From Candidatus Omnitrophota bacterium (GTDB taxonomy: Bacteria > Omnitrophota > Gorgyraeia > B26-G9): a stretch of 64,000 nucleotides of DNA. The DNA is taken from NCBI GenBank assembly GCA_018817165.1, contig JAHITY010000114.1, positions 81,721-145,720 of the forward strand, read 5' to 3'. Each line of letters opens with the position of its first letter. The first letter of the stretch is position 1. Made by a program: the position numbers and the translations under genes. Below, piece by piece: positions 28,470 to 49,587 of this stretch. The notes under the pieces are model-generated. The model had not been told where the DNA came from. It saw only the letters and a list, made by a program, of their open reading frames with translations, and did not search any database.

Positions 28470-29249
28470 ATGAGTAACAAAAATAAAATTATAAGTTTCT
28501 TAAAATGGTCAAGAGTCGGAGCAATTGCTGTTTGTTTGATGATGATTGTTTCAACCCTGGCATTAGCCTCAGAAAATTTAAATGAGCGCGAATATGATAA
28601 AAAACAGGCATATTCTAATGGAATAAGCACTATGCCGCTGGCAACTCCGGAATATCTTCTTGATGTAAGTGATGTTATTGAAGTAGTTGTTTGGCGCAAT
28701 GAAGATTTAAGTAGAATTTTAAAAATTCGCCCAGACGGCAGGATATCACTTCCTTTAGCCGGAGAAGTAAAAGCTAGTGGACTTACTCCTAAGCAGTTAA
28801 GCGATGTAATTGCCGCGACCTTAGAGCGTAAATATATCCTCAATCCTCAGGTAACGGTTATTGTCCAGAAAGTTGAAAGCAAAACAATTATGGTATTGGG
28901 ACATGTTAATAAACCCGGGCAATACAATATTTCAGAAAAAGTTACAGCTTTGCAGGCTATTGCCAGAGCTGGCGGTAATTCTCAATTTGGTCATATGGAA
29001 AATGTGGTGGTTGTGCGTAATGCTTATGCGATGAAGCCAGCTATCTATAATATTGATTTACAGAGCGCGATGAATCAGGCGAATTATAGTAATGATATGC
29101 TTCTGCAGCCCGGAGATATTGTTTATGTGCCAAAGAATTTCTTGGGTAAAATCGACGATGTTATGGGATTTTTCAGACTTAATATTCAACCTACATTAAG
29201 TTCTTATTTACAGTATAGAACTTTGGAAGCAGTGGAAGATAATAATTAA
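28470..29249 (+). CDS. Wza/GumB/KpsD-family polysaccharide export protein (Poly_export + SLBB)
   Basis: Signal peptide; DVIEVVVWRNEDLSRILKIRPDGRISLPLAGEVKASGLTPKQL polysaccharide-export motif. Confidence 0.8.
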   Translation: MSNKNKIISFLKWSRVGAIAVCLMMIVSTLALASENLNEREYDKKQAYSNGISTMPLATPEYLLDVSDVIEVVVWRNEDLSRILKIRPDGRISLPLAGEVKASGLTPKQLSDVIAATLERKYILNPQVTVIVQKVESKTIMVLGHVNKPGQYNISEKVTALQAIARAGGNSQFGHMENVVVVRNAYAMKPAIYNIDLQSAMNQANYSNDMLLQPGDIVYVPKNFLGKIDDVMGFFRLNIQPTLSSYLQYRTLEAVEDNN

Positions 29250-29270
29250 TACCTAAAAAGGGGATAAACC

Positions 29271-30935
29271 GTGAAAGATAAAAATCAAGATAAAAAAGAT
29301 GTAGATTTAGTAGATGTCCTGGAGATTATTAAAAGAGGCAAGCTGATTATTACGGCTTCGGTAATCCTGACATTGGCAGCAACTTTTTTTGTCACAAAAG
29401 TGTTGATTACTCCGGTTTATCAGACAAGCGCGAAAATTCTGATTCGCGAAGAAAAGCTTAATCCTAAAGATGATTTTCCTATATATGAAACTGGTTCACA
29501 ATTCGCGATCACCCAAGGGGAGATCATTAAAAGTAAAAATGTGATCAGTAAGGCTTTAGAAAAAATAGATCTGACTGCCAAAGCTTTGAGCGGCATAGAT
29601 AAAAAATCGCTTAATATTAGTGAACTCCAGAAAAATATAGATATCAATCTTCTTGAGAGCACTAATGTTTTAGAACTTAAGATTGAACAAAAAAATCCGC
29701 TATTTGCCGCGGAATTGGCTAATTCTATTGCCCAAACTTATATTGATAATAGAGCCAGCATGAAAAATAATACTGTAGCTCAGATCATTGCTTCATTGGA
29801 AAATGAAGCTCAGACAGCGAAAACAGGTTTTATTGAAGTGGAGAATGAATTAACTCAAATCGCCAGCCAGGATAATATGATTATGATATCCGGGTCTGAT
29901 ATGGTTTTGGATTTGCAGAAATATGCTGATGCGGATATGCATTTAATTAATGCAAACGGGGACATTGAAATGGTTGATGCCCAGATCAATGCGATCAGGC
30001 AGAGTATTAAGCAGCAGAAAAATCCCGAAGAACTTAACTTGAAATTTATTGCGAATAGTGATATTATAAACGACCTGAAATCTCAAATCCGTTTAGCTGA
30101 TTTAAAGCTGGAATTACTAATGAGTCAGTTCAGTCCTAATCATCCTGATGTGGTTGTCGCTACAGCGGCTATTGCTATACTTAAGGCTGATATTGCTCAG
30201 GAAGCGGATAGAATTATTAAAGCGGAAGTTGAATTTTTAGAAACAGAGAAAAAATCTTTAGTTAGTAAAAAAGAAGTTTTGCTGACTGCTTATAAAAAGC
30301 AAACTGATCGTTTGGATAAAGTAATCAAAAATCAGCCAAAATTAGCAATGCTCAAACGTGATGTAGAAATGAAACGTTCGATTTATAGTGATCTTATGGA
30401 AAAACTGCAGGAAGTTAGGGTCCTCCAGCATAGAACAAGACTGTTGCCGGATGCGGAGATAATTGAATTAGCTGAAGTTCCTGCGCAACCAGCAAAACCG
30501 AGCTTATTGAAAAATTTATTACTGGGATTAGTTGCGGGCCTAACTATGGGATTTGCTTTGGCTTTAATGTTTTCGGTTTCCGCTCAAACCGAGGATAAAT
30601 CAGAGGCTAAAAAATTACAAGATATAGAAAGGAGGACTTCAAGGAGGACTAAAAGCGCGCATAAGGTTACTTGTAGTGTTGTTGGTGAAAAAAAGGAATA
30701 TGTTTGCTGGAGTAATGATGTTGGTTCTGCGGGAATGAAGATAATTACCGATGAGAAGTTAAAGGAAAATAATATACTTAAATTTGAAATTCATAGAGAT
30801 AAGATGAAGCCGATTGTTGGTAATGGTATGGTAGTTTGGACATCACCGGTTTCGAAGAACGGCAGTAATAATAGTTATGCGTCAGGGATAAAGTTTTATG
30901 ATGTAGAGCTGGATATTAATAAAGAAAAAGCGTAA
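29271..30935 (+). CDS. Polysaccharide co-polymerase (Wzz/Wzc-like PCP, no BY-kinase domain) with C-terminal PilZ-like domain
   Basis: N-terminal TM, long coiled-coil periplasmic region, second TM (LLLGLVAGLTMGFALALMF). C-terminal ~110 aa RRTSRRTK...DVGSAGMKI...GNGMVVW resembles RxxxR / DxSxGG / GxVvW PilZ blocks (degenerate). No Walker A. Confidence 0.6.
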   Translation: MKDKNQDKKDVDLVDVLEIIKRGKLIITASVILTLAATFFVTKVLITPVYQTSAKILIREEKLNPKDDFPIYETGSQFAITQGEIIKSKNVISKALEKIDLTAKALSGIDKKSLNISELQKNIDINLLESTNVLELKIEQKNPLFAAELANSIAQTYIDNRASMKNNTVAQIIASLENEAQTAKTGFIEVENELTQIASQDNMIMISGSDMVLDLQKYADADMHLINANGDIEMVDAQINAIRQSIKQQKNPEELNLKFIANSDIINDLKSQIRLADLKLELLMSQFSPNHPDVVVATAAIAILKADIAQEADRIIKAEVEFLETEKKSLVSKKEVLLTAYKKQTDRLDKVIKNQPKLAMLKRDVEMKRSIYSDLMEKLQEVRVLQHRTRLLPDAEIIELAEVPAQPAKPSLLKNLLLGLVAGLTMGFALALMFSVSAQTEDKSEAKKLQDIERRTSRRTKSAHKVTCSVVGEKKEYVCWSNDVGSAGMKIITDEKLKENNILKFEIHRDKMKPIVGNGMVVWTSPVSKNGSNNSYASGIKFYDVELDINKEKA

Positions 30936-30980
30936 TCATCTTAAATTTTAAACAATTATATTTTATATTAAGGAGTCAAA

Positions 30981-31646
30981 ATGTCAACCGGAATCAATAT
31001 CGCAATTCCCAAAACAGAGGTAAAACTCGAGGATTGTTTTGCGGGTATTAATCAAAGATTTTATGAGTTTCTTAAAAGAAGCATGGATATATTCGGCAGT
31101 GCTCTTGCGCTGACCTTGGCCATGCCATTGATGCTGTTTATCGCGATTTTAATCAAGCTTACTTCTCCTGGCCCGATTTTTTATAAGCAGCAGCGCTGCA
31201 CTAAAAACGGTAAAGAATTTTGGTTGTATAAGTTTCGCTCTATGCCGGATAATATTGAAAATGGAAATGGACCTAAATGGGGAAAAACTGATGATCCCAG
31301 ATGCAATAATTTTGGCCGAATTTTGCGCTTATTACTTATTGACGAATTGCCTCAATTAATCAATGTTTTAAAAGGTGATATGAGTTTGGTTGGACCCAGA
31401 CCGGAAAGACCATTTTTTATAGAAAAATTTAGAAAGAGTGTTAAAGATTATGATTTGCGTCACAATATCAAAGCCGGGCTTACTGGTTGGGCGCAGGTTA
31501 ATGGGTATAGAGGCAATACTTCGATAGTAAAAAGAATTGAACATGATCTTTTTTACATGGAAAATAGATCTATATGTTTTGATCTTAAAATAATTCTGAT
31601 GACTCCATTTTCTATCCGACTGGCTAAATTAAAGTCAAAACAATAG
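30981..31646 (+). CDS. Bacterial sugar transferase (undecaprenyl-phosphate hexose-1-phosphate transferase, WbaP/WcaJ C-terminal-domain type)
   Basis: YKFRSM, DELPQLINVLKGDMSLVGPRPERP signature. Confidence 0.85.
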   Translation: MSTGINIAIPKTEVKLEDCFAGINQRFYEFLKRSMDIFGSALALTLAMPLMLFIAILIKLTSPGPIFYKQQRCTKNGKEFWLYKFRSMPDNIENGNGPKWGKTDDPRCNNFGRILRLLLIDELPQLINVLKGDMSLVGPRPERPFFIEKFRKSVKDYDLRHNIKAGLTGWAQVNGYRGNTSIVKRIEHDLFYMENRSICFDLKIILMTPFSIRLAKLKSKQ

Positions 31647-31940: not shown

Positions 31941-33368
31941 ATGAGTTTAAGACAGAAAACAATTCAAGGTTTGTGGTGGGGATTTGGCGCCAGGGTCTTT
32001 ATTCAGTTAAGCCAGTTTATTATTATGGCTGTTTTGGCGCATCTTCTGAGTCCAAGTGATTTTGGGCTTATTGGCATGGTCACAGTTTATTTTGGTTTTG
32101 CTTTGATGTTTGGGGAATTAGGAGTTAGCGCGGCTTTGATTCAAAGCCAAAAAGTCAATCAGGATCATTTTTCCTCAGCCTTTTGGATAAATCTTCTGGC
32201 TGGGATAACTCTGAGTTTAATTTTTTTATTAAGCGCTCCATTTATCGCGGGGTTTTATGCCAAACCAGAATTAATTAAGTTGATCCGGGTGATATCAATC
32301 AGCTGTTTTATTTCCTCTTTTTCAATTGTTCAATCAGCAATATTAAGAAAAGAAATGAATTTCAAAGCCATTGCTTTGGCCGAAAGCGCGGCGATTTTAA
32401 TTGCGGGAATACTCGGAATTTTCGCGGCCCTCAATGGTAAAGGGGTCTGGAGTTTGGTTTTTCATTTCATGAGTTTTATTTTTATCAAGAGTGTGCTTGT
32501 ATGGTTTTTTTCTCCCTGGCGGCCAAAATTTTTATTTTCTAAAACAGCGATTAAGGATATTTTTAGTTTTAGTATGAATATGACGGGGCTGAATATTGTG
32601 GAATATTTCGCCCGGAATATTGATTATTTATTAGTCGGCAAATTTCTCGGCGCCGGAGCATTGGGTTTGTATACTTTGGCTTATAAATTTATGCTTTATC
32701 CCTTACAGAATATCTCTAATGTCATCGGAGGGGTAATGTTTCCGGCTTTTTCTAAAATTCAGGATGATCTGGAGAAAGTTCGGGCAAATTATTTAAAAAT
32801 GGTCAAAGCGATTGCTTTGATTAGTTTTCCTTTAATGCTCGGCATGTTTGTGCTTGCCCCGGAATTTATCCGGATTGTGTTTGGGATTAAATGGGAACAA
32901 GCTATTCCGATAGTAAGGATATTAAGTTTTTGCGGGATGCTTCAATCTATTGAGGCTACAGTAGGCGATATCTTTCGTTCTCAAGGCAGAAGTGATATTC
33001 ATTTCAGACTACAGGTTGTGGGAACAATTATTGTTTCTCTGTGTATTTCAATTGGTTTAAAATGGGGCATAAAAGGAGTTGCTTGTTTGTATGCTTTGTA
33101 TAATTTTGCTTGGGTTCCTTATTTGATATCCCGATCAAATAATTTGATTAAATTAGCAAATAAACACTTAATCAAAGCAATTTATCCCGGGTTGTTAATA
33201 TCAGGATTAATTGCAGGATTGTTGAGTTTGATTAAATATTTTATTATTGCTTCGGATCTGTATATTTTACTTTTAGCCGTAGCATTGGGAGCGATTTTTT
33301 ATTTAGTTTTGCTGCTGTTCACAAAAAATATTTTAATCAGCAATAAGCGATTAGTATTGAACATTTAA
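31941..33368 (+). CDS. Wzx-like polysaccharide flippase (MOP/polysaccharide biosynthesis protein family)
   Basis: About 12-14 predicted TM helices, 475 aa, typical Wzx hydropathy pattern and position in locus. Confidence 0.7.
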   Translation: MSLRQKTIQGLWWGFGARVFIQLSQFIIMAVLAHLLSPSDFGLIGMVTVYFGFALMFGELGVSAALIQSQKVNQDHFSSAFWINLLAGITLSLIFLLSAPFIAGFYAKPELIKLIRVISISCFISSFSIVQSAILRKEMNFKAIALAESAAILIAGILGIFAALNGKGVWSLVFHFMSFIFIKSVLVWFFSPWRPKFLFSKTAIKDIFSFSMNMTGLNIVEYFARNIDYLLVGKFLGAGALGLYTLAYKFMLYPLQNISNVIGGVMFPAFSKIQDDLEKVRANYLKMVKAIALISFPLMLGMFVLAPEFIRIVFGIKWEQAIPIVRILSFCGMLQSIEATVGDIFRSQGRSDIHFRLQVVGTIIVSLCISIGLKWGIKGVACLYALYNFAWVPYLISRSNNLIKLANKHLIKAIYPGLLISGLIAGLLSLIKYFIIASDLYILLLAVALGAIFYLVLLLFTKNILISNKRLVLNI

Positions 33369-33402: not shown

Positions 33403-34182
33403 ATGGATGATAAAAAGTGGCAGAAACATTTGGGCGAAGAACCATATGCTTGTGGACAAGAAAGTGTGGATCGTCCTTATGAAGAAAAGGTAGCTCTTTC
33501 TGCGCGAGTACTTATTTTTGTTCCTTCAGAAGCAAAAAATGTGCTTGTGGTTGGATGCGGAGATGGGACAGAAGTTAAATGGCTGGTTGACCGCGGGTTT
33601 GATTCACGAGGAGTTACCCGGAATCAATCAGAAGTAATCAATGCTAAAAAACGCTATGGCGTGGATATTGAAGTCGGAGACATGCATGAATTGCCTTATC
33701 CGGATAAACAGTTTGATTGTCTTGTGGCTAAAGATGTTTTTGAACACGCGATTGCTCCGACGATTGCTTTAAGGGAATTCTATCGGGTGCTTAATGATTA
33801 TGGATTACTGATATTAACCATGCCTTCGATGGAATGGGCTGATGAATTTTATCATCACAGTGTATTAACCCATAAACAAATGCGGATTATGTTTGAGAAA
33901 CATTCTTTTGAGCTTTTGGCCGGGCCGGGAATTAAACCAAAAATTCCGTTAAAGTCGCCGATTATCATTCCTTTGGGTTTGAAACAAGGGCATATTGATG
34001 TGTTTATCGCTAAAAAGTTAAAGTATAAACCAGCTGATTTCGCGATTGATGTTCAGCAAATTCAGCAAATTCCCTATGTCCGATTTTTAAAAAGCATATA
34101 CAAGCATTGTCCTGCTCCAATCGCAAAATTATTCAGAGGAATTTATAATCAGCTATTGATGTTTAAGGCCAGGTTTTATTAA
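33403..34182 (+). CDS. Class I SAM-dependent methyltransferase
   Basis: Motif I VLVVGCGDGTE, acidic loop D at motif II, 259 aa. Confidence 0.65.
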   Translation: MDDKKWQKHLGEEPYACGQESVDRPYEEKVALSARVLIFVPSEAKNVLVVGCGDGTEVKWLVDRGFDSRGVTRNQSEVINAKKRYGVDIEVGDMHELPYPDKQFDCLVAKDVFEHAIAPTIALREFYRVLNDYGLLILTMPSMEWADEFYHHSVLTHKQMRIMFEKHSFELLAGPGIKPKIPLKSPIIIPLGLKQGHIDVFIAKKLKYKPADFAIDVQQIQQIPYVRFLKSIYKHCPAPIAKLFRGIYNQLLMFKARFY

Positions 34183-34193
34183 AATTAAATTTA

Positions 34194-35687
34194 TTGCATA
34201 AGGGGAAAATGAAAGAAAATATAAAAAAAATAGTTTTAATTAATCCACCTTGGATTTTTGCGCATGAACGGGAGATAGTCCTTTCGCAAAATTTAGGTTT
34301 GGGCTATTTGACGGCATATCTATTAAAACATGGTCATCAGGTTGAGATTATTGATGCTCTTTGTGAGGGTATTAATAATTATCAAAAGATAAAAAGTAAT
34401 GATCAGCCATTTTTACAAGTAGGTTTAGATTATCAGCAAATAGTCAAAAGAATCCCTTTGGACACAGATTTTATCGGGATTTCCGCTCCCTTTACCAATA
34501 ATGCGAAAATAGTCAAGCAATTAGCACATGTAATAAAAGAAAGTTTCCCGGAGATTCCAATTATTATGGGTGGGGTATATCCGTCATTGACTCCTTATGA
34601 TGCATTTTGCGAAAAGATTGAATATTATGTCATCGGCGAGGGGGAAAAGGCTTTGCTTGATTTGGTTAATGGGCAAGAGCCAAATCAGATTAAAGGAGTG
34701 CTTTGTTTTGGTAAGTCTAAAGGCTTTGAAGCTGGACAAATAATTGAAAATTTAGATCAGCTGCCTTTTCCGGCACGCGATAAATTGCCGATGAGTAAAT
34801 ATGTTAATTTTCATTCTCCCCGCAGGCTGCAACTTAAAACCGGATCAATAATCACTTCACGCGGCTGTCCGTTTGACTGTACTTTTTGTTCAATTCATCG
34901 GATTACCGGTTATAAATGGCGAATGCGCTCAGCGGAAAATGTTTTAGCGGAAATTCGGGAATTAGTTGAGAAATATGGGGTAGAGCATATTGAGTTTGAG
35001 GATGATAATCTTACTCTTGATAAGCAGAGGGCATTGGCAATATTTGAGGGGCTTATAAAAATAAACAAAGAACTTAAGCCTTTATCTTGGTCAACGCCCA
35101 ATGCAGTGCGGATTGATACGCTAGATCGGGATTTATTGGAAAAAATCAAGCAGTCGAATTGCCTGTCTTTGAATTTCGCGATTGAGTCTGGGGATCCGGA
35201 ATTATTAAAAAAGATGAATAAAAAACTTGATTTGAATACTGTCTTAGAAATGACAAGATTATGCAAAGCATTAAATATTAAAATGAATGCTTTTTTTATG
35301 ATCGGTTATCCCGGAGAAGACCAGGCAAGTTTTCAGAAAACTTTAAGTTTTATTAAGGAAATAAAAATAATCGGCGTGGACAATGTTTATACGACCATCA
35401 CGCGCGCTTATCCTGGTACAAAGCTCTATGAATTTTGTGAAAAAAATAATTATATTACAATTAAAGATAAGCAAATAAACACTTATTTGGGCAATGCGAT
35501 TACTCCGGAAAATCTGATTGTTACTCCGGATTTTGATAAAAAAGTTTTGCTTAAGAGATTAGCTTTGGTGGAAAAAGCGGTATATCCATGGTATCTGCGA
35601 TTTTATCATCGGTACGCGTATTTGATAAAAAAAATAATTCCAATTAATATGATAAAATATATAAAAAAGTTGATTGATGAAAAATAA
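34194..35687 (+). CDS. B12-binding-domain radical SAM enzyme (class B)
   Basis: N-terminal B12-binding-like region, TSRGCPFDCTFCSI CxxxCxxC; conserved DQLPFPARD block shared with paralog at 44321. Confidence 0.8.
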   Translation: MHKGKMKENIKKIVLINPPWIFAHEREIVLSQNLGLGYLTAYLLKHGHQVEIIDALCEGINNYQKIKSNDQPFLQVGLDYQQIVKRIPLDTDFIGISAPFTNNAKIVKQLAHVIKESFPEIPIIMGGVYPSLTPYDAFCEKIEYYVIGEGEKALLDLVNGQEPNQIKGVLCFGKSKGFEAGQIIENLDQLPFPARDKLPMSKYVNFHSPRRLQLKTGSIITSRGCPFDCTFCSIHRITGYKWRMRSAENVLAEIRELVEKYGVEHIEFEDDNLTLDKQRALAIFEGLIKINKELKPLSWSTPNAVRIDTLDRDLLEKIKQSNCLSLNFAIESGDPELLKKMNKKLDLNTVLEMTRLCKALNIKMNAFFMIGYPGEDQASFQKTLSFIKEIKIIGVDNVYTTITRAYPGTKLYEFCEKNNYITIKDKQINTYLGNAITPENLIVTPDFDKKVLLKRLALVEKAVYPWYLRFYHRYAYLIKKIIPINMIKYIKKLIDEK

Positions 35688-37355: not shown

Positions 37356-38360
37356 ATGCAAAGTTCAGAAATATTAATATCCGTGATTATCCCTTGTAAA
37401 AATGAAGAGAAGAATATTCTCCGCTGTCTTGGTTCGATTATCGCTGAGCTTAAAAATATCGGTAGGTCAGAGGTTCTGGTTATTGATTCGCGTTCCACGG
37501 ATAAAACTGTGGAGAAAGCTAAGCAGTTTCCGGTCAGTATCGTGCAGCTTAAAGAAAATTGGGATATCAGTCCTGCGGCAGCAAGATATGTGGGCTGTCT
37601 GCATACAATCGGAAAATATCGTTTGTTCATTGATGGGGATATGGAACTTATCCCCGGATTTTTGGGCCAAGCCATAGATTTTCTGGAAAAGCATAAGCAG
37701 GTTGCGGGCGTAGCTGGTCTAGGTTCTGAGTTTTATATTGAAGGCGGGAATCTGGAAAATATGTATAAACGAAAACAGTCAATTGCCGAAGTTGATGTCT
37801 TGGCCGGAGCCGGATTATTTACTGGCGCGGCGCTTAAAGCAGTGGGTTATTTTAATCCATTCTTAAAAGCCGAAGAAGAACATGAACTTGCGCAGAGATT
37901 AAAAAAAGCGGATTACAGCTTATTTACTCTGCCGATTCCAATGATCAAGCATTATACATCCAAAGGCATGGGTAATTTTGAACGCAGATTAAAAGCTGGG
38001 ATGTTCAAAGGAATTGGTCAGATGTTTCGCCTGACTTTAGAGCTGCAAACATTTTCCTTAAAATATTTTTTAGGGTTTAAATCATTTATTAGTTTTATCC
38101 TCCTGCTCATCGTTTTTATGGTAGCGCTATCCAATTTATTGTTTTTAGGTAATTCTTTGTTATTACAGGGAGTTGCCGGATTTATGGTATTAATATTGCT
38201 GATTTCCTGCTATAGTAAAAAGGGAATAAAATCAGGGATTTTAAGTTTTTATAAAATTTTTTTAATTAATCTCCAGATTTTTTCAGGTTTGTTTTACAAA
38301 ACTCCGGAAATCAGTAATTATCCAAATGATATTATAGTAATAAAAAAAGAGGGAGTATGA
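37356..38360 (+). CDS. Family 2 glycosyltransferase with C-terminal TM segments
   Basis: VIIPCKNEEKNI N-terminal GT2 motif, DxD-like FIDGD, 334 aa. Confidence 0.8.
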   Translation: MQSSEILISVIIPCKNEEKNILRCLGSIIAELKNIGRSEVLVIDSRSTDKTVEKAKQFPVSIVQLKENWDISPAAARYVGCLHTIGKYRLFIDGDMELIPGFLGQAIDFLEKHKQVAGVAGLGSEFYIEGGNLENMYKRKQSIAEVDVLAGAGLFTGAALKAVGYFNPFLKAEEEHELAQRLKKADYSLFTLPIPMIKHYTSKGMGNFERRLKAGMFKGIGQMFRLTLELQTFSLKYFLGFKSFISFILLLIVFMVALSNLLFLGNSLLLQGVAGFMVLILLISCYSKKGIKSGILSFYKIFLINLQIFSGLFYKTPEISNYPNDIIVIKKEGV

Positions 38361-41070: not shown

Positions 41071-42255
41071 ATGAAGAAAATTATTTTTTTCCAGATATTT
41101 GATTATCGGGATGTTTATTTCGCGATTGAAAATAATCAGGCGGAGACCTATGTATCGCAAAAACAGTTTATTGAGTTTACCTCTAGTTTGATGAAAAGCG
41201 ATGATGTTTCTGCGGTGTGTATTGTTTCTTTACTTAGTTCCGGGAAATATGATCAAATAATGCCTAATGGAGTAAGGGTTATCGGCATTCCTTTTTTAGC
41301 CGATGATCCAAAACAAACTCAAATAAAAGCAAATAAGTTTGTTGACTTATTCGCTCCGACGCATGCGATTATTCAGGTTCCTTTGCTTGGGTTGCTGGCG
41401 AAATGCATTAAAAATAAAATCAAGACTTGCCTGATTATTGCGGATAGCTTTACCGGAACCGGTTTGCGCGGTTTCATTTGGACAAGGATGTTTGCTTGGC
41501 TGTTAAATAATAAATATGTGGAGTTGGTTTCTAATCATAATTATCCGGCAGCTAATTTATTAAAAAGCTTTGGTGTTAAGCCAAATAAGATTATTCCTTG
41601 GGATCAATCCTGGGATCAGCAAACTGATAAATTCGCGGTAAAGGTTCTAAACTCCCTGCCTGATGTATGGAAATTTTTCTATGCCGGCAGAATCTTAACC
41701 GAAAAGGGAGTCGGCGATATTATTCAGGCCATATCTCTGCTCAAACAAAACAAAGTGCAAGCTTGCGCCGTGTTTGTTGGTTCAGGTAATATTACTGATT
41801 TTGAAAAACAGGCCGCTGATTTGGGGATATCGGAAAACATTGCTTTTTTAGGCTCGGTTGCCCATGCTCAGGTGCTTAGCGGTATGCGTAATGCCGACAT
41901 TGTGATTGTGCCCAGTCAGATTAAATCCAGCGAAGGCATGCCTTGTACAATATATGAATCGTTTATCGTGAAAACTCCGCTGATTATTTCAGATCATCCG
42001 ATGATGAAAAAAGCAATTAAAAACTGTGTTTTCTTTAAAGCCAATGATCCCGGGTCATTGGTTGAGGCAGTGAATCAATTGAGCAATGATTTGGCCGTGT
42101 ATAATAAATTGTCAGCCGACAGCGCCGCAGCGTTAAGCGAGTTGATTGTGCCGTTTGATTCTATTCAGATCCTTGACCATTGGCTGAGCGGCAAGCAAGC
42201 GGATAAACAGTGGTTGTATGAGCATAGTTTAAAAAAATTAAATAAGAATTATTAA
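41071..42255 (+). CDS. Glycosyltransferase family 4-like
   Basis: GT-B C-terminal block SSEGMPCTIYESFIVKTPLIISD (E-x7-E-like); weak. Confidence 0.5.
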   Translation: MKKIIFFQIFDYRDVYFAIENNQAETYVSQKQFIEFTSSLMKSDDVSAVCIVSLLSSGKYDQIMPNGVRVIGIPFLADDPKQTQIKANKFVDLFAPTHAIIQVPLLGLLAKCIKNKIKTCLIIADSFTGTGLRGFIWTRMFAWLLNNKYVELVSNHNYPAANLLKSFGVKPNKIIPWDQSWDQQTDKFAVKVLNSLPDVWKFFYAGRILTEKGVGDIIQAISLLKQNKVQACAVFVGSGNITDFEKQAADLGISENIAFLGSVAHAQVLSGMRNADIVIVPSQIKSSEGMPCTIYESFIVKTPLIISDHPMMKKAIKNCVFFKANDPGSLVEAVNQLSNDLAVYNKLSADSAAALSELIVPFDSIQILDHWLSGKQADKQWLYEHSLKKLNKNY

Positions 42256-42282: not shown

Positions 42283-44187
42283 ATGAAAAAAATTCTATTT
42301 TTAGAACAATACACTAAAATTTCCGGCGGACAAAAAGTTTTGCTGTCAATTCTCGATGGCTTAAAATCAGATTATCGCTTTTGCGTGACAGTGCCGGAGC
42401 GCGGGGAATTAACCGAAGAGCTGGACAAACGGAATATCGCGCATCAGCAATTAGCCGTGGGCTATTATTCTTTGGGCAAGAAAACCTTGCTTGATGTGCT
42501 TTTATATTTAATCCGCTTGCCTTATTTAGTTCTCAGATTATCGCGGATCATTAAGCAAGAAAAACCGGACTTGGTTTATGCCAATGCCGCTCGGACTTTT
42601 GTCTGCGCGGCAATTGCTTGTAGTCTGGCTAAGGTTCCCTTGGTTTGGCATGTCCATAGTATTTTTGATAAAGGTATCTCCCGGAAATTATGTAATTATT
42701 TTGGTAAAAATAAAATCGTTAAAAAAATTATTGTGGTTTCCCAGGCAGCCAAAGCGCCGCTTGCTGATTTAGCGGATAAAATCGAAGTTATTTATAATGC
42801 GATTGATGAAAAAATATATTATCCCGGTGAAAAACAAGGCCCGATCCGCCAAAGCTTAAACCTCGGGAATAATCTTGTCGCCGCGATGGTCAGTTTATTA
42901 GTGGAGTGGAAATGTATTGATGATTTTATCCGGGCCGCGGGAATTATTAGCGCTGATTATCCTCAAGTGAAATTTCTGATTGTCGGTGATGTGCTTTATG
43001 ATCAGGCCGGTAAAAAATATAAACAGGATTTACTTGATCTGGTCAAACAGCTTAAGCTGGAAAACAAGGTTATTTTTACTGGTTTTCGTAATGATGTCGC
43101 GGCGATTATGCGTGAGCTGGATATTTTTGTTTTAGCGTCAAAGCAGCCTGATCCTTGTCCGACTTCTTTGCTTCAAGCCATGGGTTCTGGTATGGCGGTT
43201 ATTGCCACTGATTTTGGCGGTCCGGCGGAAATAATCCAGGATCAGCAAGATGGTTTATTATATCCGGCGCAGGATTATAAAATATTGGCAGCCAAGATTA
43301 AAAGTCTGATTACAGATGAAAAAAAGCGCAAGCAATTATCGAAAAACGCGGCAGATAAAATAAATCAGGATTTTAATTATAAAAATTATATGCTTAAAAT
43401 TAAACAGATAATTGAAAATCAAATCAAAATTACTGATAAGCATATTTATGGCAGTGGGAAATATTTGGAAAATAATCCGACTTGGCATCAAGAAGACGCG
43501 GATTGGAAAAGTCGGGAAATTATTAAAGTTATCCCCAAGAGTTTAAAAGAAAAGTTCAAAAAAACAAAGCAACCGATCAGAATTGTCGATATCGGCTGCG
43601 GTACCGGGCAAATCCTGAAAAATCTCGCTGTTTATTGGCAAAGCCAAAATATTCCGGCTGATTGTAAAGGATATGACTTATCCGAACAAATAATCGAGCA
43701 AGCAAAAAAGAATTTTCCGCAAGCTGAGTTTTCGGCTCGAGATTTTGCTTCCAAGGAATATAAAATTCAAGACAAGCGGATTGACTTTACTTTGCTGATA
43801 GATATTTTAGAGCATATTGAAAGTCCGCAGATGCTTTTAGCCGATGTAGCACAGGTAAGTGACTATATAATATGCCATCTTCCGCTTGAAGATAATCTGA
43901 TGGTAAATTCCCGCAAGCTTAAAGACAAATTTAAGAAAACTGTGGGGCATATAAACTACTATAATAAGAAAAGTGCTTTAGCGATGTTTGCTCAAGCTGG
44001 ATTAAGTGTGGGAAATGTGATATATACTTGTTCTGATTGCAGTGCTGATTATAAGTTGGAAAGTTTGCCGCGCAGGTTGATTCTCCAGCCTTTGCGGAAA
44101 TTGTTTTTTAAAATATCTCCGGATTGGACAGCGCATGTTTTGGGAAATTGTTCATTAATGCTATTGCTTAAAAAGCAGAAATTGTAG
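42283..44187 (+). CDS. Bifunctional GT4 glycosyltransferase (N-terminal) / class I SAM methyltransferase (C-terminal) fusion
   Basis: GT4 blocks (EWKCID..., CPTSLLQAMGSGMAVIATDFGGPAEI); MT motif I IRIVDIGCGTGQIL; stop codon TAG (44185-44187) lies inside the GTAGGGG terminus of the downstream repeat. Confidence 0.7.
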   Translation: MKKILFLEQYTKISGGQKVLLSILDGLKSDYRFCVTVPERGELTEELDKRNIAHQQLAVGYYSLGKKTLLDVLLYLIRLPYLVLRLSRIIKQEKPDLVYANAARTFVCAAIACSLAKVPLVWHVHSIFDKGISRKLCNYFGKNKIVKKIIVVSQAAKAPLADLADKIEVIYNAIDEKIYYPGEKQGPIRQSLNLGNNLVAAMVSLLVEWKCIDDFIRAAGIISADYPQVKFLIVGDVLYDQAGKKYKQDLLDLVKQLKLENKVIFTGFRNDVAAIMRELDIFVLASKQPDPCPTSLLQAMGSGMAVIATDFGGPAEIIQDQQDGLLYPAQDYKILAAKIKSLITDEKKRKQLSKNAADKINQDFNYKNYMLKIKQIIENQIKITDKHIYGSGKYLENNPTWHQEDADWKSREIIKVIPKSLKEKFKKTKQPIRIVDIGCGTGQILKNLAVYWQSQNIPADCKGYDLSEQIIEQAKKNFPQAEFSARDFASKEYKIQDKRIDFTLLIDILEHIESPQMLLADVAQVSDYIICHLPLEDNLMVNSRKLKDKFKKTVGHINYYNKKSALAMFAQAGLSVGNVIYTCSDCSADYKLESLPRRLILQPLRKLFFKISPDWTAHVLGNCSLMLLLKKQKL

Positions 44188-44320: not shown

Positions 44321-45799
44321 ATGAATATCAAAAAAATTCTATTAATTCAGCCGCCGTGCACGCTGAGTAAAAGTTATACCAAAGAGATTCAGCCGCCTTT
44401 GGGCATGGCTTATATTGCCGCGGTGCTTGAGGATAAATTCGAGGTCAGAATTCTTGATGCCGCGGTTGAGGGCTGGCATACTGAAATTGCGGTTTCTAAA
44501 CAGGAAATTCGCTATGGTCTTTCCTTTGAACAAATAGCAGCGAGGATCAAAGAGTTTGCTCCTGATTTAGTGGGCATATCTTGTTTGTTTTCGATGCAGG
44601 CACATAATGCCCATCAAGTCGGACAGATCGCGAAAAAAGCTAATCCGAAGATTATTACAGTTATGGGGGGAGCGCATCCTACTGTAATGGCTAAAAAAGT
44701 TCTGGAAGACTCGGCAATTGATTATGTGGTTATTGGCGAAGGCGAACAAATCATAACTAAGCTGATCGATTGCATTAATCAAAAACAATCTGTATCTGAA
44801 ATTGATGGCTTAGCTTATAAACAAGATAATAATATAATCGTAAACCCCAAAACCAGTTTTATTCAGGATCTGGATGCCTTGCCTTTTCCCGCCCGGCATT
44901 TATTACCCATGGATAAATATTTTAAGATCAATATGCCTCATGGTGTAACTACCCGGCGGAGTCCGAACACTTCGCTGATTACTTCGCGGGGTTGTCCGGC
45001 ACAGTGTATTTTTTGCGCGATTCATCCGATCTGGGGTAAAAAATTTCGCGCTCGATCAGCGGAAAATGTAGTCCAAGAAATAAAACATTTGATCAGTACT
45101 TATGGGATTCAGGAGCTGCAGTTTGAAGATGATAATCTGACTTTTGATAAACCAAGAGCAATGAGTATCTTTGATCAGATGATCCAAGAAAAACTCGATA
45201 TTCTCTGGACTACGCCCAATGGGGTGGCTTTGTGGGCCATGGATGAGGCCATGCTGTTAAAAATGAAGCAAAGCGGCTGTTACCGGCTTTGTTTGGCCAT
45301 TGAAAGCGGGGATCAGGATGTACTGCATAAGATTATCAATAAACCCTTGGATTTAAACAAAGCCAAGCATTTGATCAGCTTTGCTTATAAAAATGGATTT
45401 GAAACAGATGCTTTTTTTGTGATTGGCTTTCCCGGAGAAACTAAGCAGCAGATCAAGCGGACTTTTAGCTTTGGCCGCAGTCTGGATGTAAGCAATGTTA
45501 ATTATTATATTGCTACGCCTTATCCCGGGACAAAGCTTTATGAGCAGTGTGTTAAAAACAATTATCTGGTCAAAGATTTTCAGGCTGACAGTTTGGGCGT
45601 GAAAAAAGGAGTGATTATAACTTCCGAGTTTACTCCTGAAGAATTAGAAAAAATGGTTTCGCAGGAAAAGCTTTTATTTTATGTGTTTCTTTTGTTTAAA
45701 AATCCCAAAGCTTTTTATACTAAAGTCATAAAACGCTTTGTCCAAGACCCGACTTATTTTATTAATTTTGTTAAAAATATATTCAAAAAAATCCTGTAG
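44321..45799 (+). CDS. B12-binding-domain radical SAM enzyme (class B)
   Basis: TSRGCPAQCIFCAI, DALPFPARH block; stop TAG (45797-45799) inside the next repeat terminus. Confidence 0.8.
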   Translation: MNIKKILLIQPPCTLSKSYTKEIQPPLGMAYIAAVLEDKFEVRILDAAVEGWHTEIAVSKQEIRYGLSFEQIAARIKEFAPDLVGISCLFSMQAHNAHQVGQIAKKANPKIITVMGGAHPTVMAKKVLEDSAIDYVVIGEGEQIITKLIDCINQKQSVSEIDGLAYKQDNNIIVNPKTSFIQDLDALPFPARHLLPMDKYFKINMPHGVTTRRSPNTSLITSRGCPAQCIFCAIHPIWGKKFRARSAENVVQEIKHLISTYGIQELQFEDDNLTFDKPRAMSIFDQMIQEKLDILWTTPNGVALWAMDEAMLLKMKQSGCYRLCLAIESGDQDVLHKIINKPLDLNKAKHLISFAYKNGFETDAFFVIGFPGETKQQIKRTFSFGRSLDVSNVNYYIATPYPGTKLYEQCVKNNYLVKDFQADSLGVKKGVIITSEFTPEELEKMVSQEKLLFYVFLLFKNPKAFYTKVIKRFVQDPTYFINFVKNIFKKIL

Positions 45800-45923: not shown

Positions 45924-47375
45924 ATGAAAATATTGATGCTTAATCCGCCGTTTTTCCCGCGTTATTCGCGTTCACAGCGCAGTCCGGCAGTGACGAAAAG
46001 CGGCACACTGTATTATCCGGTGTGGTTGGCTTATGCTACTGCTGTGCTGGAAAAAAAAGGTTTTGATGTCAGACTTGTTGATGCTCCGGCTCAAGGCTTA
46101 AATGCGCGGGCGATCCTTGATCTGGCCGAGGCGTATGATCCGGGGTTAATTGTTCTGGGAACATCCACGCCAAGTATTTATAATGATCTAGAGATAGGGG
46201 GAAAATTAAAAGCCATATTACCGCAGAGCTTTATAACTTTGGTCGGCACTCATGTATCCGCTTTGCCCGAGGAATCTTTGAATTTAAACAAAAGTATTGA
46301 TGCCGTGGCCAGAGCAGAATATGATTATACAATTGCTGAATTAGCTGAGGCTTTGGTTAATAAAGCTGATTTAACTAAAGTCCTGGGCATAAGTTTTCGC
46401 CAGAATGACCAAATAATCCATAATCCGGATCGAGAAAAAATCAGCAATTTGGATGAGATCCCTTTTGTCAGCAGTGTGTTTAAAAAACACTTAAATATTA
46501 ATAATTATTTTTTTGCTGCTTCAGATTATCCGATGGTGCAGATCTTTACAGCGCGGGGTTGTCCGTTTCAGTGTTTTTTCTGTGTTTATCCGCAAACGAT
46601 TCATGGCCATATTTATCGCACCCGTTCAGCGGAAAATGTGGTCGATGAATTTGCTTATATTAAAGAAAATCTGCCGCAGGTCAGGGAAGTGGTGATTGAA
46701 GATGATACTTTTTCCGTGGATAAGAAAAGAGTAAAAAAAATCTGCGAATTGCTTATTCAGCGAAAAATTAATTTAAAGTGGAATGCTAATGTCCGGGCGG
46801 ATCTTGATCTTGCGACAATGCGGCTGATGAAAAAAGCCGGCTGCCGTTTGATTATCATTGGTTTTGAAAGCGCGGATCAGATGATTTTGGACAATATCCA
46901 GAAGGGCGCGCAAGCCGAAAAGATGGAGCAATTTTTTAGCAATACCAAGAAAGCCGGATTATTATTGCATGCGGCTTTTATGGCGGGAAATCCCGGGGAA
47001 ACCCGGGAAACTCTGAAAAAGACATTTGCTTTTGCTAAAAAATCTATGCCGGATACGGTGCAGTTTTTCCCCCTCATGGCTTATCCCGGCACAAAAGCTT
47101 ATCAATGGGCTAAGGATAATAATTTATTAAAGAGCGAGAAATATTCTGATTGGGTGACTAAAGAAGGCCTGCACAATTGCGTATTAAATCTGCCGAATTT
47201 AACTTCCCAAGAATTGGTGGAATGGTGTGATATCAGTCGGAAAAAATATTATCTTAGCTTTAGATATCTTTGCTATAAAACGATCCAAATGATCTTACAT
47301 CCTCAAGAGATTAAGCGAACATTTCGGGCAATGTTTAAATTTAGAAAATTCCTCTGGCGCGGCAGTTTTAAATGA
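45924..47375 (+). CDS. B12-binding-domain radical SAM enzyme (class B)
   Basis: TARGCPFQCFFCVY cluster motif, 483 aa. Confidence 0.8.
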   Translation: MKILMLNPPFFPRYSRSQRSPAVTKSGTLYYPVWLAYATAVLEKKGFDVRLVDAPAQGLNARAILDLAEAYDPGLIVLGTSTPSIYNDLEIGGKLKAILPQSFITLVGTHVSALPEESLNLNKSIDAVARAEYDYTIAELAEALVNKADLTKVLGISFRQNDQIIHNPDREKISNLDEIPFVSSVFKKHLNINNYFFAASDYPMVQIFTARGCPFQCFFCVYPQTIHGHIYRTRSAENVVDEFAYIKENLPQVREVVIEDDTFSVDKKRVKKICELLIQRKINLKWNANVRADLDLATMRLMKKAGCRLIIIGFESADQMILDNIQKGAQAEKMEQFFSNTKKAGLLLHAAFMAGNPGETRETLKKTFAFAKKSMPDTVQFFPLMAYPGTKAYQWAKDNNLLKSEKYSDWVTKEGLHNCVLNLPNLTSQELVEWCDISRKKYYLSFRYLCYKTIQMILHPQEIKRTFRAMFKFRKFLWRGSFK

Positions 47376-47551: not shown

Positions 47552-47594
47552 TTACAAAATGATAAAAAATATCATGAAAAATGATAATCATAAA

Positions 47595-47697
47595 GTAGGG
47601 GCGCTGCTTGCCTGCGCCCGCTTATTAATGATTTTACCGATTTATGGAATTGTATATTATTACGGGCCGAGGCAAGCGCGGCCCCTACGTTGTGACC
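47595..47697 (+). repeat. Short-form GTAGGGG...CCCCTAC element + GTTGTGACC tail
   Basis: Same architecture as 44184/45796 copies. Confidence 0.75.
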
Positions 47698-47715
47698 TTT
47701 TAAAAAAGGAAAATT

Positions 47716-48855
47716 ATGCAGATTATTTTCTGGATTTCATTAATTAGTTTATTCCATGTATATATCGGATATTTAATTATCTGCATTATTGCGGCTAAAT
47801 TATTTAAACAGCCGATAGATAAACAGGAAATTTTCCCCACAGTGACTTTGCTGATTCCGGCTTATAATGAACAGCCGGTGATTAAAGCCAAAATTGAAAA
47901 CAGCCTGGCTTTGGAATATCCCAAAGATAAATTAAAGATTGTGATTGCCTCGGAATCAACGGATAATACCAATCAATTGGTCAGCGAATACTTAGATCAA
48001 GGGATAGTTTTACATGCTTTTGCCCAGCGCCGTGGTAAAAGTCGGATGCTTTATGATGTGGTGGGAAAAACCACAGGAGAAATCATTGTTTTCTCAGACG
48101 CTAACGCGATGTATAAACCGGATGTTATCAGCAAATTGGTGCGAAATTTTAATGATCGCAAAATCGGGGGAGTATTAGGCAGTTTAATTATTACTAATCC
48201 TGATGATTCATCAATCAGCGAAGGTGAATCTGTGTTTAAAAAATATGAATCTATTCTGCGTAAAGCCAATACAGCGGTGCATTCGATTATCGGCGCTGAT
48301 GGAACAATGCTGGCAATCCGGCGGGATTTATATAAGCCGATAAGTCCGGAACGGGGCGATGATTTTGAAATAGCCTTAAGAATCAGGGTACAAGGTTATG
48401 GCATGGTGTTTGAGCCGGAAGCGATTTCTTATGAAAAAGCCTCAGTTGACTTTCAGGCTGAAATTAAACGAAAAAGAAGAATTGTTTCCTGGTTTTGGAA
48501 AAGCGCTTTGATCCTGCTTTCCGAAATGGTTAATCCTTGGCAAGGGTTTTTAATTTTTCAGGTAATATCAAATAAGATCATGCGCTGGCTGTCGCCGGTT
48601 TTTTTAATTGCCCTGTTTGTCAGCAGCTTGAGTTTAGCTCCAGGGAGTATTTTTTATGGTTTATTTTTTCAGCTGCAGGTGTTTTTTTATTGCGTAGCTA
48701 TGCTGGGCGGAATTTTTTCTAAAAAAACAGAAAATAAATTAGAAAAGATACTGCGAATGCCTTTTTTCTTTATTGTGTTTAATTACGCTTTTTTAATTGG
48801 AACGATCGAGGGGCTGTTTTTAAAACAAAAACCTTTTTGGCAAAAAGTACGCTAA
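47716..48855 (+). CDS. Family 2 glycosyltransferase (processive/CESA-like topology with C-terminal TM helices)
   Basis: TVTLLIPAYNEQPVI, DxD region FSDAN, QxxRW-like region absent/uncertain; 379 aa. Confidence 0.8.
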   Translation: MQIIFWISLISLFHVYIGYLIICIIAAKLFKQPIDKQEIFPTVTLLIPAYNEQPVIKAKIENSLALEYPKDKLKIVIASESTDNTNQLVSEYLDQGIVLHAFAQRRGKSRMLYDVVGKTTGEIIVFSDANAMYKPDVISKLVRNFNDRKIGGVLGSLIITNPDDSSISEGESVFKKYESILRKANTAVHSIIGADGTMLAIRRDLYKPISPERGDDFEIALRIRVQGYGMVFEPEAISYEKASVDFQAEIKRKRRIVSWFWKSALILLSEMVNPWQGFLIFQVISNKIMRWLSPVFLIALFVSSLSLAPGSIFYGLFFQLQVFFYCVAMLGGIFSKKTENKLEKILRMPFFFIVFNYAFLIGTIEGLFLKQKPFWQKVR

Positions 48856-48879
48856 ATATAAAAACTAGGAGAATGGATA

Positions 48880-49587
48880 GTGCAAGTAATTTATGATCAA
48901 GCTGATCCTTGGGAATTGTATTTGAAAACCCTTAATCAATGTATTGAACAATATTCCTGCAAAAGTTTGTGTGAAATCGGCGGGGGAGCTTTTCCCGCGA
49001 TTTCTTTAGAGCAAATAAACCGGCAGAAGCTTGATTATACAATTCTCGATATATCGCAGGTCGAGTTAGATCGGGCGCCTCAAGGATACCGGAAACTTTT
49101 AGCGGATATTTGTCAGCCGGATTTAAATATCACTGAGCAGTATGATTTTATTTTTTCTAAAATGCTGGCTGAACATGTTAAGGACCCAGAACTGTTTCAT
49201 TCCAATGTCTATAAATTGCTTAAGCCCGGAGGGATTGCTTTTCATTTTTTTCCGACCTTGCATTCTTTGCCATTTATGATTAATTGGTTATTGCCGGAAT
49301 TTATCGCTAATTTTTTATTTAAACTTTTTGTCTGCAATGATCCAATTGAGCATAAAAGATTTTCTGCGCATTATAAATGGTGTAAAGGTCCGACCAAAAA
49401 GCAGATCAGTAATTTCGAAGGCTTAAATTATGAAATATTGGTTTATCAGGGATTTTTCGGTCACAAATATTATCAGCGGATTCATTTGCTAAGAGATATC
49501 CATAAACTTGTAGTCAAGCTCTTAGCGAGATTTCCTAATCCTTATCTGACCAGCTTTGCTTTTGTGATTCTAAGAAAAAAATCCTAA
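48880..49587 (+). CDS. Putative class I SAM-dependent methyltransferase
   Basis: Motif I-like CEIGGGAF, post-III LLKPGG; weak. Confidence 0.5.
   Translation: MQVIYDQADPWELYLKTLNQCIEQYSCKSLCEIGGGAFPAISLEQINRQKLDYTILDISQVELDRAPQGYRKLLADICQPDLNITEQYDFIFSKMLAEHVKDPELFHSNVYKLLKPGGIAFHFFPTLHSLPFMINWLLPEFIANFLFKLFVCNDPIEHKRFSAHYKWCKGPTKKQISNFEGLNYEILVYQGFFGHKYYQRIHLLRDIHKLVVKLLARFPNPYLTSFAFVILRKKS

Follow-up and report, generated by a model that had tools for sequence, protein, structure and literature searches.

Introduction

Class-B radical S-adenosylmethionine (SAM) enzymes, which carry a B12-binding type of N-terminal domain, include several members that act on sugars. GenK, GenD1 and MoeK5 are the precedents for sugar C-methylation by such enzymes (PMC9204698, PMC12931638). 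According to reviews, HpnJ is a non-methylase for which ring contraction of a lipid-linked glucosamine has been proposed, and HpnJ, MoeK5 and Fom3 cluster together in sequence similarity networks. The reviews also describe AprD4 and ArsL as having a related N-terminal domain but no cobalamin, and the physiological function of SD_1168 as unknown. The subject of the present analysis is a set of four radical SAM genes of this kind (rSAM1 to rSAM4) in a 64,000-nucleotide stretch of DNA (the window) from a Candidatus Omnitrophota bacterium (contig JAHITY010000114.1, positions 81,721 to 145,720). There they stand among genes for glycosyltransferases (GTs) and SAM-dependent methyltransferases (MTs) in a Wzx/Wzy-type glycan locus at positions 28470–49587. 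To our knowledge, the characterised cobalamin-type rSAMs that act on sugars all work on antibiotics or on the hopanoid head group, and we know of none, the literature searched included, with a demonstrated role in a Wzx/Wzy surface-polysaccharide pathway.

Both the type of pathway and the enzyme superfamily are known. What is new is the combination, together with the four uncharacterised rSAM families and, chiefly, the breadth of the coupling between rSAM and GT genes. Consistent with an earlier note on this DNA (the original prediction), which knew of no characterised exopolysaccharide (EPS) pathway with such an enzyme set, the literature searched yields no description of one. With a probability of about 0.5, we read the locus as encoding a Wzx/Wzy-dependent exported surface polysaccharide, the repeat unit of which would be tailored in the cytoplasm by the rSAMs and MTs, with rSAM1, rSAM3 and probably rSAM2 acting as C-methylases.

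Gene content of the locus

The locus consists of 16 co-directional genes, all on the plus strand, as found from the list of open reading frames (ORFs) and Pfam:

28470..29249, +, Wza-like outer-membrane polysaccharide export (OPX) protein (Poly_export 84.6 bits, SLBB_2 55.8 bits)
29271..30935, +, polysaccharide co-polymerase (PCP) without kinase domain (Pfam Wzz and GNVR; two transmembrane (TM)-like segments)
30981..31646, +, small priming polyprenyl-phosphate glycosylphosphotransferase (PGT), 221 amino acids (aa) (Bac_transf 214.6 bits)
31941..33368, +, Wzx flippase of the MOP family (Polysacc_synt_3 314.5 bits; eleven TM-like segments)
33403..34182, +, class I SAM methyltransferase MT_a (Methyltransf_11 61.9 bits)
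34194..35687, +, rSAM1, radical SAM protein with B12-binding domain (PF02310 50.4 bits, PF04055 90.6 bits, CPFDCTFC at residue 225)
35842..37353, +, rSAM2, radical SAM protein with B12-binding domain, separate lineage (PF02310 62.5 bits, PF04055 73.3 bits, CPYNCPYC at residue 195)
37356..38360, +, glycosyltransferase GT2_a (Glycos_transf_2 76.8 bits; overlaps the next GT gene by 4 nucleotides (nt))
38357..39532, +, GT-B glycosyltransferase, TuaH-like (Glyco_trans_1_4 and Glycos_transf_1)
39565..41037, +, membrane protein with Wzy_C domain, polymerase or ligase (Wzy_C 72.4 bits; at least nine TM-like segments)
41071..42255, +, GT4 glycosyltransferase (Glycos_transf_1 87 bits)
42283..44187, +, GT4 fused to class I methyltransferase MT_b (Glyco_transf_4 and Glycos_transf_1 at residues 15–357, Methyltransf_23 at residues 417–576)
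44321..45799, +, rSAM3, radical SAM protein with B12-binding domain, very widespread family (PF02310 95.3 bits, PF04055 65.3 bits, CPAQCIFC at residue 225)
45924..47375, +, rSAM4, radical SAM protein with B12-binding domain, sister family of HpnJ (PF02310 52.1 bits, PF04055 67.5 bits, CxxxCxxC at C213)
47716..48855, +, membrane glycosyltransferase GT2_b (Glycos_transf_2, Glyco_tranf_2_3, Glyco_transf_21; four TM-like segments)
48880..49587, +, class I SAM methyltransferase MT_c (Methyltransf_11 and Methyltransf_12)

The Pfam domain calls thus give an exporter, a PCP, a PGT, Wzx, a Wzy_C protein, five GTs, three class I MT domains and four rSAMs. MT_b is fused to one of the five GTs, and MT_a and MT_c are standalone proteins. 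All gene coordinates of the original prediction match ORFs. The Wzx/Wzy-type locus with OPX/PCP export that it described is complete in its Pfam domains, and its count of about six GTs resolves into five GTs and the priming transferase. The PGT and Wzx also pass curated NCBIfam cut-offs, namely TIGR03025 EPS_sugtrans (297.2 bits versus 295.55) and the MOP flippase model NF007773 (321.2 bits versus 273). Wzy_C, Wzz with GNVR, and Poly_export with SLBB lie above Pfam thresholds, while the NCBIfam equivalogs for these proteins stay below cut-off: the exporter is closest to an XrtA/PEP-CTERM EPS export protein (134.9 bits, under the cut-off of 180) and the PCP to EpsF (88 bits). The GT-B protein at 38357 has TuaH as its best, below-cut-off match (116 bits), and MT_a reaches no NCBIfam family at cut-off. 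Several of the best NCBIfam matches in the locus are to TuaB, TuaC, TuaG, TuaH and to EPS or PEP-CTERM-associated families.

Intergenic gaps are mostly 2–45 nt, and one gene pair overlaps by 4 nt. The gaps between rSAM genes and neighbouring MT or GT genes (2–11 nt) support a shared locus: MT_a ends 11 nt before the start of rSAM1, and rSAM2 is separated from GT2_a by 2 nt. The start codon of rSAM1 is TTG, with an alternative ATG 15 nt downstream. Among the ORFs of the locus, Pfam detects no nucleotide-sugar modification genes, and unusual sugars would therefore arise by tailoring. Across the 64 kb, Rfam gives no family at gathering score and hence no riboswitch, tRNA or other known RNA. Neither a cobalamin uptake gene nor a cobalamin or SAM riboswitch was found in the window, and a scan for promoters and terminators gives counts indistinguishable from shuffled sequence (74 versus 66.8 and 26 versus 18, respectively).

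The Wzy_C protein bears on what the product is. The domain is common to polymerases, O-antigen ligases and O-oligosaccharyltransferases. If the protein were a ligase or an oligosaccharyltransferase, the product would be an O-antigen or core extension of lipopolysaccharide (LPS) or a protein-linked glycan. Its best NCBIfam match is a putative O-glycosylation ligase (43 bits), Wzx scores 282 bits on an O-glycosylation flippase model, and orthologues of rSAM4 elsewhere adjoin genes for a GT9 heptosyltransferase and a lipid A acyltransferase. However, both O-glycosylation scores are well below cut-off, the operon opens with a Wza-like exporter and a PCP as is typical of exported EPS or capsule, and the Pfam scan of the 64-kb window contains no lipid A or core genes. 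We therefore consider an LPS or protein glycan unlikely.

Conservation in Omnitrophota

The gene order recurs in the Omnitrophota assemblies L001 and L002, in which the rSAM3 orthologue is 91% identical, and L003 (73%). The arrangement of the cluster is thus not a chance juxtaposition, and the rSAM genes are integral to the locus as was originally proposed. MT_c is kept at the locus end in all three. MT_a and rSAM1 have changed places in L003. The fusion of MT_b with GT4 is also found in L001, L002, L008 and L010 and is split into two genes in L003. The closest relatives, L001 and L002, lack GT2_b, which is present here and in L003. A copy of the palindromic repeat described below precedes GT2_b and an inverted copy follows MT_c, suggesting that genes of the locus can be gained or lost in the manner of a cassette.

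More distant Omnitrophota (L009, L027) have a simpler locus consisting of Wzx, GT2, GT4, Wzy, GT4, rSAM3, rSAM4, GT2, PGT, PCP and Wza, without MT genes, rSAM1 or rSAM2. rSAM3 and rSAM4 are thus part of a core, with rSAM1, rSAM2 and the MTs as accessory components.

Coupling of the rSAM4 family to glycosyltransferases

The rSAM4 family occupies at least 587 loci in a metagenome scan, and neighbours were counted in the best 80 of these (51–88% identity), 79 of which have a downstream gene. A GT2 comes next on the same strand in 49 of these 79 loci, at a median gap of 5 nt, while GT2s make up 85 of the 681 ORFs in the best loci of the family. About 23 of these downstream GT2s are of the GT2_b type. 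A PGT (Bac_transf) is the second gene downstream in 13 loci, and a GT4 lies directly upstream in 19 of 77. The other recurrent neighbours are a CapD-type dehydratase, the GT9 heptosyltransferase, the lipid A acyltransferase, Wzy_C, an NTP-transferase and a flavin amine-oxidase-like protein, so that all recurrent neighbours are envelope-glycan genes. The median pairwise identity is 53% among the rSAM4 orthologues and 29% among their GT2 partners, which fall into two classes. Because the rSAM4 orthologues are far more conserved than their partners, a shared early substrate is suggested, as opposed to the finished glycan, which is variable.

Beside rSAM4 orthologues at L122 (4702–6000) and at 13 other loci there is a gene for a DUF362 protein that carries a ferredoxin-like 4Fe-4S motif at its C-terminus, and in 8 loci this gene lies directly upstream. 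The protein is possibly the electron donor of these enzymes. The locus in the window has no such gene. In a complete Desulfobacterales chromosome (L086), PilZ, rSAM, GT2 and PGT genes form an isolated unit, with PilZ directly upstream at 9530–9901. No PilZ gene was found in the metagenome loci with seed sequences that are divergent.

The family spans Omnitrophota, Desulfobacterota (including Lawsonia), Planctomycetota, Schekmanbacteria and Patescibacteria. Plasmid 1 of Lawsonia intracellularis (27 kb; NC_008012.1, L169) encodes LI_RS06575, which is 52% identical to rSAM4. Its neighbours are three GT2s, GalE, two DUF2304 proteins, five class I MTs and a second rSAM, together with heptose-type activation genes (SIS isomerase, HAD-IIIA hydrolase and GHMP kinase). 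By its predicted gene content, nearly all of this plasmid is a glycan island. The literature searched contains no paper linking it to radical SAM enzymes.

The rSAM3 family beyond this genome

Relatives of rSAM3 are found in at least 591 loci of species-representative genomes (one genome per species). Neighbours were counted, with profiles built from the window's own proteins, in the best 80 of these loci (38–73% identity), all of which come from metagenome-assembled or single-amplified genomes. The best 80 include Omnitrophota, Planctomycetota, Chloroflexota, Desulfobacterota, Elusimicrobiota, the Candidate Phyla Radiation (CPR), DPANN, Bathyarchaeia and Methanoperedens among other lineages. 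At least one GT is present in 49 of the 80 loci and at least one class I MT in 40, GTs and MTs accounting for 120 and 75 of the 1054 ORFs, respectively; Wzx occurs in 12 and a carbamoyltransferase in 3. Two or more B12-type rSAM genes occur in 49 loci and three or more in 26, up to a maximum of nine (L028). A 153-kb contig labelled Woesearchaeota (L004/L005) combines Wzx, four rSAMs, five MTs and three GT2s with a second flippase-like gene, two carbamoyltransferases and adjoining ADP-heptose genes.

At L028 (CP070770.1), L022 and L017, seven to nine B12-type rSAM genes stand in a row, and GTs are few or absent. In one metagenome protein from ENA (P0115, 768 aa), an rSAM3-family enzyme (48% identity) is naturally fused to a C-terminal class I MT. 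A Rosetta-stone link from this fusion to the locus was rejected as weak, the MT domain being only marginally similar to MT_a (E 0.001).

If the rSAMs merely shared an operon with glycan genes, their substrate might be the lipid carrier, a membrane lipid, as for the rSAMs of hopanoids, ladderanes and tetraethers, or a peptide. In favour of this are the nearly pure rSAM arrays (nine genes in L028, seven in L022), NCBIfam matches to the ladderane-type TIGR04072 (80–120 bits) and HpnR (64–112 bits), and weak matches to methylase models of peptides that are made on ribosomes and modified after translation (RiPPs). However, every lipid- and RiPP-family score is far under cut-off, the coupling of rSAM4 orthologues to a closely spaced GT2 holds across phyla, and the conserved neighbours are all glycan or LPS genes. 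Moreover, the locus shows no lipid-synthesis genes, no SPASM or RiPP recognition element (RRE) domains and no plausible precursor peptide, either by Pfam or among the gap ORFs. A lipid or peptide substrate is thus improbable. By contrast, a sugar or lipid-linked glycan as the substrate is well supported by the genomic coupling, from which we infer it.

Family relationships of the four radical SAM proteins

In each of the four proteins, PF02310 and PF04055 are above their gathering cut-offs (32.1 and 29.5 bits), and CxxxCxxC occurs exactly once (C225, C195, C225 and C213), in agreement with the B12-like N-domain and cluster motif predicted for each. No DxHxxG motif is found in any of them, and the use of cobalamin by rSAM1–4 is predicted from their class-B architecture. 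The proteins had been called paralogous. They are distant paralogues with 25–37% identity, rSAM1 and rSAM3 sharing 37% and every other pair 25–29%, and do not represent a recent family expansion. Orthologues of rSAM1 were found in close relatives only.

The best NCBIfam match is SD_1168 for rSAM1 (200.8 bits) and rSAM3 (345 bits; model NF038361), against a cut-off of 575. For rSAM2 and rSAM4 it is HpnJ (TIGR03471, cut-off 577.6), on which rSAM4 scores 438.1 bits over its full length, rSAM3 205.1, rSAM1 162.4 and rSAM2, weakly, 145.5. The scores of the four on PhpK (TIGR04479, 107–166 bits versus 600), AprD4 (NF033070, 63–109 versus 500), BchE (TIGR02026, 105–191 versus 481) and the KedN5-type C-MT model (49–98 versus 700) are likewise below cut-off. 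Genuine BchE proteins are 26–27% identical to rSAM3. With identity and BchE scores this low, the name 'Mg-protoporphyrin cyclase' given to homologues at JGI was rejected as automatic over-annotation.

A neighbour-joining tree was built with HpnJ, a MoeK5-like protein and BchE as references. It recovers the rSAM4 family as a monophyletic group with HpnJ as its sister, each with 78% bootstrap. Consistently, rSAM4 is 38% identical over 480 residues to a genuine HpnJ from the hpnI-hpnJ-hpnK locus of Mycetohabitans (L170). rSAM2 forms its own clade. rSAM1 and rSAM3 group weakly (28–43% bootstrap) with the MoeK5-like protein of the S. clavuligerus megaplasmid pSCL4, which is 27–30% identical to rSAM1–4.

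The closest solved structure by sequence is AprD4 (6FD2) for all four proteins (E 1e-12 to 1e-24), followed by QCMT/MgmA (9CCB), CysS, TokK, OxsB and TsrM. The AlphaFold (AF2) model of rSAM3 has a pLDDT of 92.4, and besides AprD4 its fold matches TsrM, MgmA, CysS, TokK and OxsB (E 1e-23 to 1e-19). The fold search did not separate methylases from non-methylases, as AprD4 and the cobalamin enzymes are nearly equal in significance, and the modelled fold of rSAM3 leaves its chemistry undecided between them. In the rSAM3-family profile, the N-terminal domain can be aligned to the cobalamin domains of TokK ('PDVLALSC...GGPHV'), OxsB and QCMT but not to the N-terminal domain of AprD4 (−3.3 bits). This indirectly favours real cobalamin binding by rSAM3.

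Proposed tailoring pathway

The small PGT would prime the polyprenyl-phosphate carrier, and the five GTs would lengthen the repeat unit. The three class I MTs and four cobalamin-type rSAMs would modify its sugars, either lipid-linked or at the nucleotide-sugar stage. Wzx would then flip the unit, the Wzy_C protein polymerise it, and the PCP and the Wza-like protein export the polymer. The rSAMs have no TM segments except for one hydrophobic stretch in rSAM2. As they also need SAM and low-potential electrons, tailoring is expected to be cytoplasmic, before flipping. In this scheme, rSAM1, rSAM3 and probably rSAM2 would methylate unactivated sugar carbons, as do GenK, GenD1 and MoeK5. The step of rSAM4 would come early, with the product formed by the priming transferase and the partner GT2 as substrate, and would be either a C-methylation or a skeletal rearrangement of the HpnJ type.

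Because most class-B enzymes, and among the sugar-acting ones GenK, GenD1 and MoeK5, are methylases, C-methylation is by analogy the single most likely chemistry of the rSAMs. For rSAM4, an HpnJ-type rearrangement appears at least as plausible, and dehydration of the AprD4 type may be conceivable for any of the four. The methylase activity claimed in the original prediction is not established. It is compatible with the position of rSAM1 and rSAM3, nearest SD_1168 and weakly MoeK5-like. It is at risk for rSAM4, which is nearest to HpnJ, since the original prediction itself named grouping with non-methylating families as grounds for giving it up. The HpnJ family is itself sugar-acting, and glycan tailoring as such survives. 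In short, sequence family does not settle the reaction type.

Several observations count against tailoring by methylating rSAMs. None of the four reaches any curated NCBIfam cut-off, so the reaction type rests on analogy. The characterised family nearest to rSAM4 is a proposed non-methylase, and rSAM4 has 'GTH' at the position of the 'GGxH' motif of rSAM3. AprD4, a cobalamin-free dehydratase, is the top structural match of all four proteins by sequence and of the rSAM3 model by fold (TM 0.74–0.81). The grouping of rSAM1 and rSAM3 with the MoeK5-like protein has a bootstrap of only 28% at its node, and the identity of that protein as MoeK5 is a tentative assignment from the gene order of the moe cluster. 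Adjacency of MT and rSAM genes is no more than modestly enriched (33 of 68 MT genes versus about 20 expected).

Part of this evidence would fit rSAMs that tailor the glycan by non-methylating chemistry, all methyl groups then coming from the three class I MTs. The options are ring contraction or carbocycle formation (proposed for HpnJ, shown for OxsB), 1,2-diol dehydration (AprD4), epimerisation and oxidation. Besides the HpnJ-model score, identity and sister position of rSAM4 and the rank of AprD4 in the structure searches, HpnJ acts on lipid-linked glucosamine made by the GT2 HpnI, which parallels the rSAM4–GT2 pairing. HpnJ, BchE and OxsB are also listed as non-methylases within one network (PMC9204698, PMC12931638). 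However, most characterised class-B rSAMs, the sugar-acting GenK, GenD1 and MoeK5 included, are methylases, and the co-clustering of HpnJ with MoeK5 and Fom3 makes closeness to HpnJ compatible with methylation. Nor did the window or the recurrent neighbour genes show an HpnK-type deacetylase or an AprD3-type reductase (the latter was sought in the locus with Pfam), and the rSAM3 family aligns with cobalamin domains and not with the N-terminal domain of AprD4. The window also has no hopanoid genes, hpnI-hpnJ-hpnK included, and no phosphonate genes turned up among its scanned ORFs. As for the partner GT, GT2_b scores 26.5 bits on HpnI and has no BLAST similarity to it, so the GT part of an HpnI/HpnJ analogy for the GT2_b–rSAM4 pair was rejected. 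Taken together, wholly non-methylating rSAMs are a minority possibility.

A bolder and rather speculative proposal is that the rSAM4 family, with its coupled GT2 and PGT, acts on a sugar at an early stage, polyprenyl-linked or nucleotide-activated, and makes of it a residue that is ring-contracted, carbocyclic or C-branched, while the rSAM1–3 families would add further radical modifications. These enzymes might then be a major unrecognised source of envelope-glycan diversity in uncultured anaerobic bacteria and archaea.

Flanking genes and the palindromic repeat

Two genes beyond the end of the locus, and a repeat shared by both regions, were considered for a link to the pathway:

50056..51441, −, SGNH/GDSL hydrolase–TPR protein (Lipase_GDSL_2 61.1 bits and TPR repeats)
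55426..57213, −, NodU/CmcH-type carbamoyltransferase (Carbam_trans_N 299 bits, Carbam_trans_C 225 bits)
44184–44278 (+), 45796–45890, 47595–47689, 49608–49740 (−), 55104–55198, 57622–57701, 61451–61476 (−), copies of a palindromic repeat

In L001 and L002 the SGNH-TPR gene adjoins the locus on the minus strand; in L003 it does so on the plus strand, co-directional and right after the last MT. Its staying next to the locus in three relatives makes the originally suggested esterase-like role plausible. The protein is probably an accessory polysaccharide O-acyl esterase or transferase, and it may have an extracytoplasmic role in adding or removing acyl groups.

Carbamoylation as part of the pathway is not supported. 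The carbamoyltransferase gene lies about 6 kb from the cluster end, beyond SGNH-TPR, DUF212, YkuD-LysM, accA and bioY. It is on the opposite strand, and the equivalent regions of the syntenic relatives lack it. It is part of a cassette at 55244–57467 (−), in which predicted membrane ORFs of 84 and 61 aa abut or overlap its ends. Its membership of the pathway is doubtful. Since carbamoyltransferases occur inside rSAM/GT/MT loci of three distant genomes, there may still be a functional link.

The repeat is a GC-rich intergenic palindrome of about 95 nt (111 nt with conserved flanks) with the left arm GTAGGGGCGCTGCTTGCCTGCGCCCG, the right arm CGGGCCGAGGCAAGCGCGGCCCCTAC and an AT-rich spacer in between. 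Three direct copies are 94–95% identical, and each arm matches at six sites, versus none in 100 shuffles. There is a copy immediately upstream of each of rSAM3, rSAM4 and GT2_b, others follow the last MT and flank the carbamoyltransferase cassette at either end, and one copy holds a promoter-like TTGACC-16-TATTAT. The core of the right arm is absent from the 85 loci compared, including the 91%-identical relatives, and the repeat therefore looks like a genome-specific element resembling a miniature inverted-repeat transposable element (MITE) or a repetitive extragenic palindrome (REP). A role as a conserved regulator tying the carbamoyltransferase to the cluster was rejected on the same grounds. 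A RiPP reading of the small gap ORFs was also rejected, as these are translations of the repeat and SPASM and RRE domains are lacking.

Elsewhere in the window, a fifth radical SAM protein of 467 aa (8167–9570, +; Radical_SAM_N2 and Radical_SAM), only 23–25% identical to rSAM1–4, is encoded away from the cluster, with a PilT-like ATPase on one side and two histidine kinases on the other. Genes for c-di-GMP-type signalling flank the locus at 6033–7058, 12352–13803, 24045–24740 and 61033–61407, comprising an HD_5 response regulator, a protein with response regulator, GAF and GGDEF domains, and two PilZ proteins. An unusual fusion of an N-terminal ComFB domain to a CheR methyltransferase is found at 21882–22982 (+). 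GC skew is positive over the whole window (1–64000), which suggests a single replichore.

Significance

Glycan loci with these rSAM families occur in hundreds of species-level genomes, almost all of them from uncultured anaerobes and including CPR and DPANN. This suggests that chemical decoration of surface sugars by such enzymes is widespread and has gone unstudied. If so, the surface glycans of much microbial diversity would hold C-methyl, deoxy or carbocyclic sugars unforeseen by current glycan-prediction schemes, and the organisms would have a cell-surface requirement for vitamin B12. The rSAM4–GT2–PGT set would then be a compact three-gene module for heterologous reconstitution, and the plasmid of Lawsonia intracellularis, a veterinary pathogen of pigs, offers a handle in a named organism.

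Comparison with known systems

The HpnI-HpnJ-HpnK system of the bacteriohopanetetrol cyclitol ether resembles the present one in that a B12-domain rSAM is paired with a GT2 transferring a sugar to a lipid acceptor. However, the partner GT2 here lies downstream of rSAM4 rather than upstream, and the context is a Wzx/Wzy polysaccharide. The moenomycin pathway includes carbamoylation (MoeM5), whereas the carbamoyltransferase here lies outside the locus. The moenomycin system likewise has a class-B rSAM, MoeK5, together with GTs working on a lipid-anchored glycan (PMC9204698, PMC12931638), but its product is a secondary metabolite rather than a polysaccharide that is polymerised and exported, only one rSAM is present, and the relationship of that enzyme to the present rSAMs is weak (28% bootstrap).

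The aminoglycoside enzymes GenK and GenD1 (C-methylases) and AprD4 (diol dehydratase) share the Rossmann-type N-terminal domain and act on sugar carbons. They differ in that identity is about 20% and their substrates are soluble pseudo-oligosaccharides. The (P-)methyltransferases of the SD_1168/PhpK group provide the best, though below-cut-off, NCBIfam model for rSAM3 and rSAM1.

Canonical Wzx/Wzy loci for EPS, capsule and teichuronic acid (tua) have the same PGT, Wzx, Wzy_C, PCP, OPX and GT2/GT4 genes. The present locus differs from them in its PCP without kinase domain, in having no nucleotide-sugar modification genes, and in the four class-B rSAMs and three MTs that are interleaved with its GTs.

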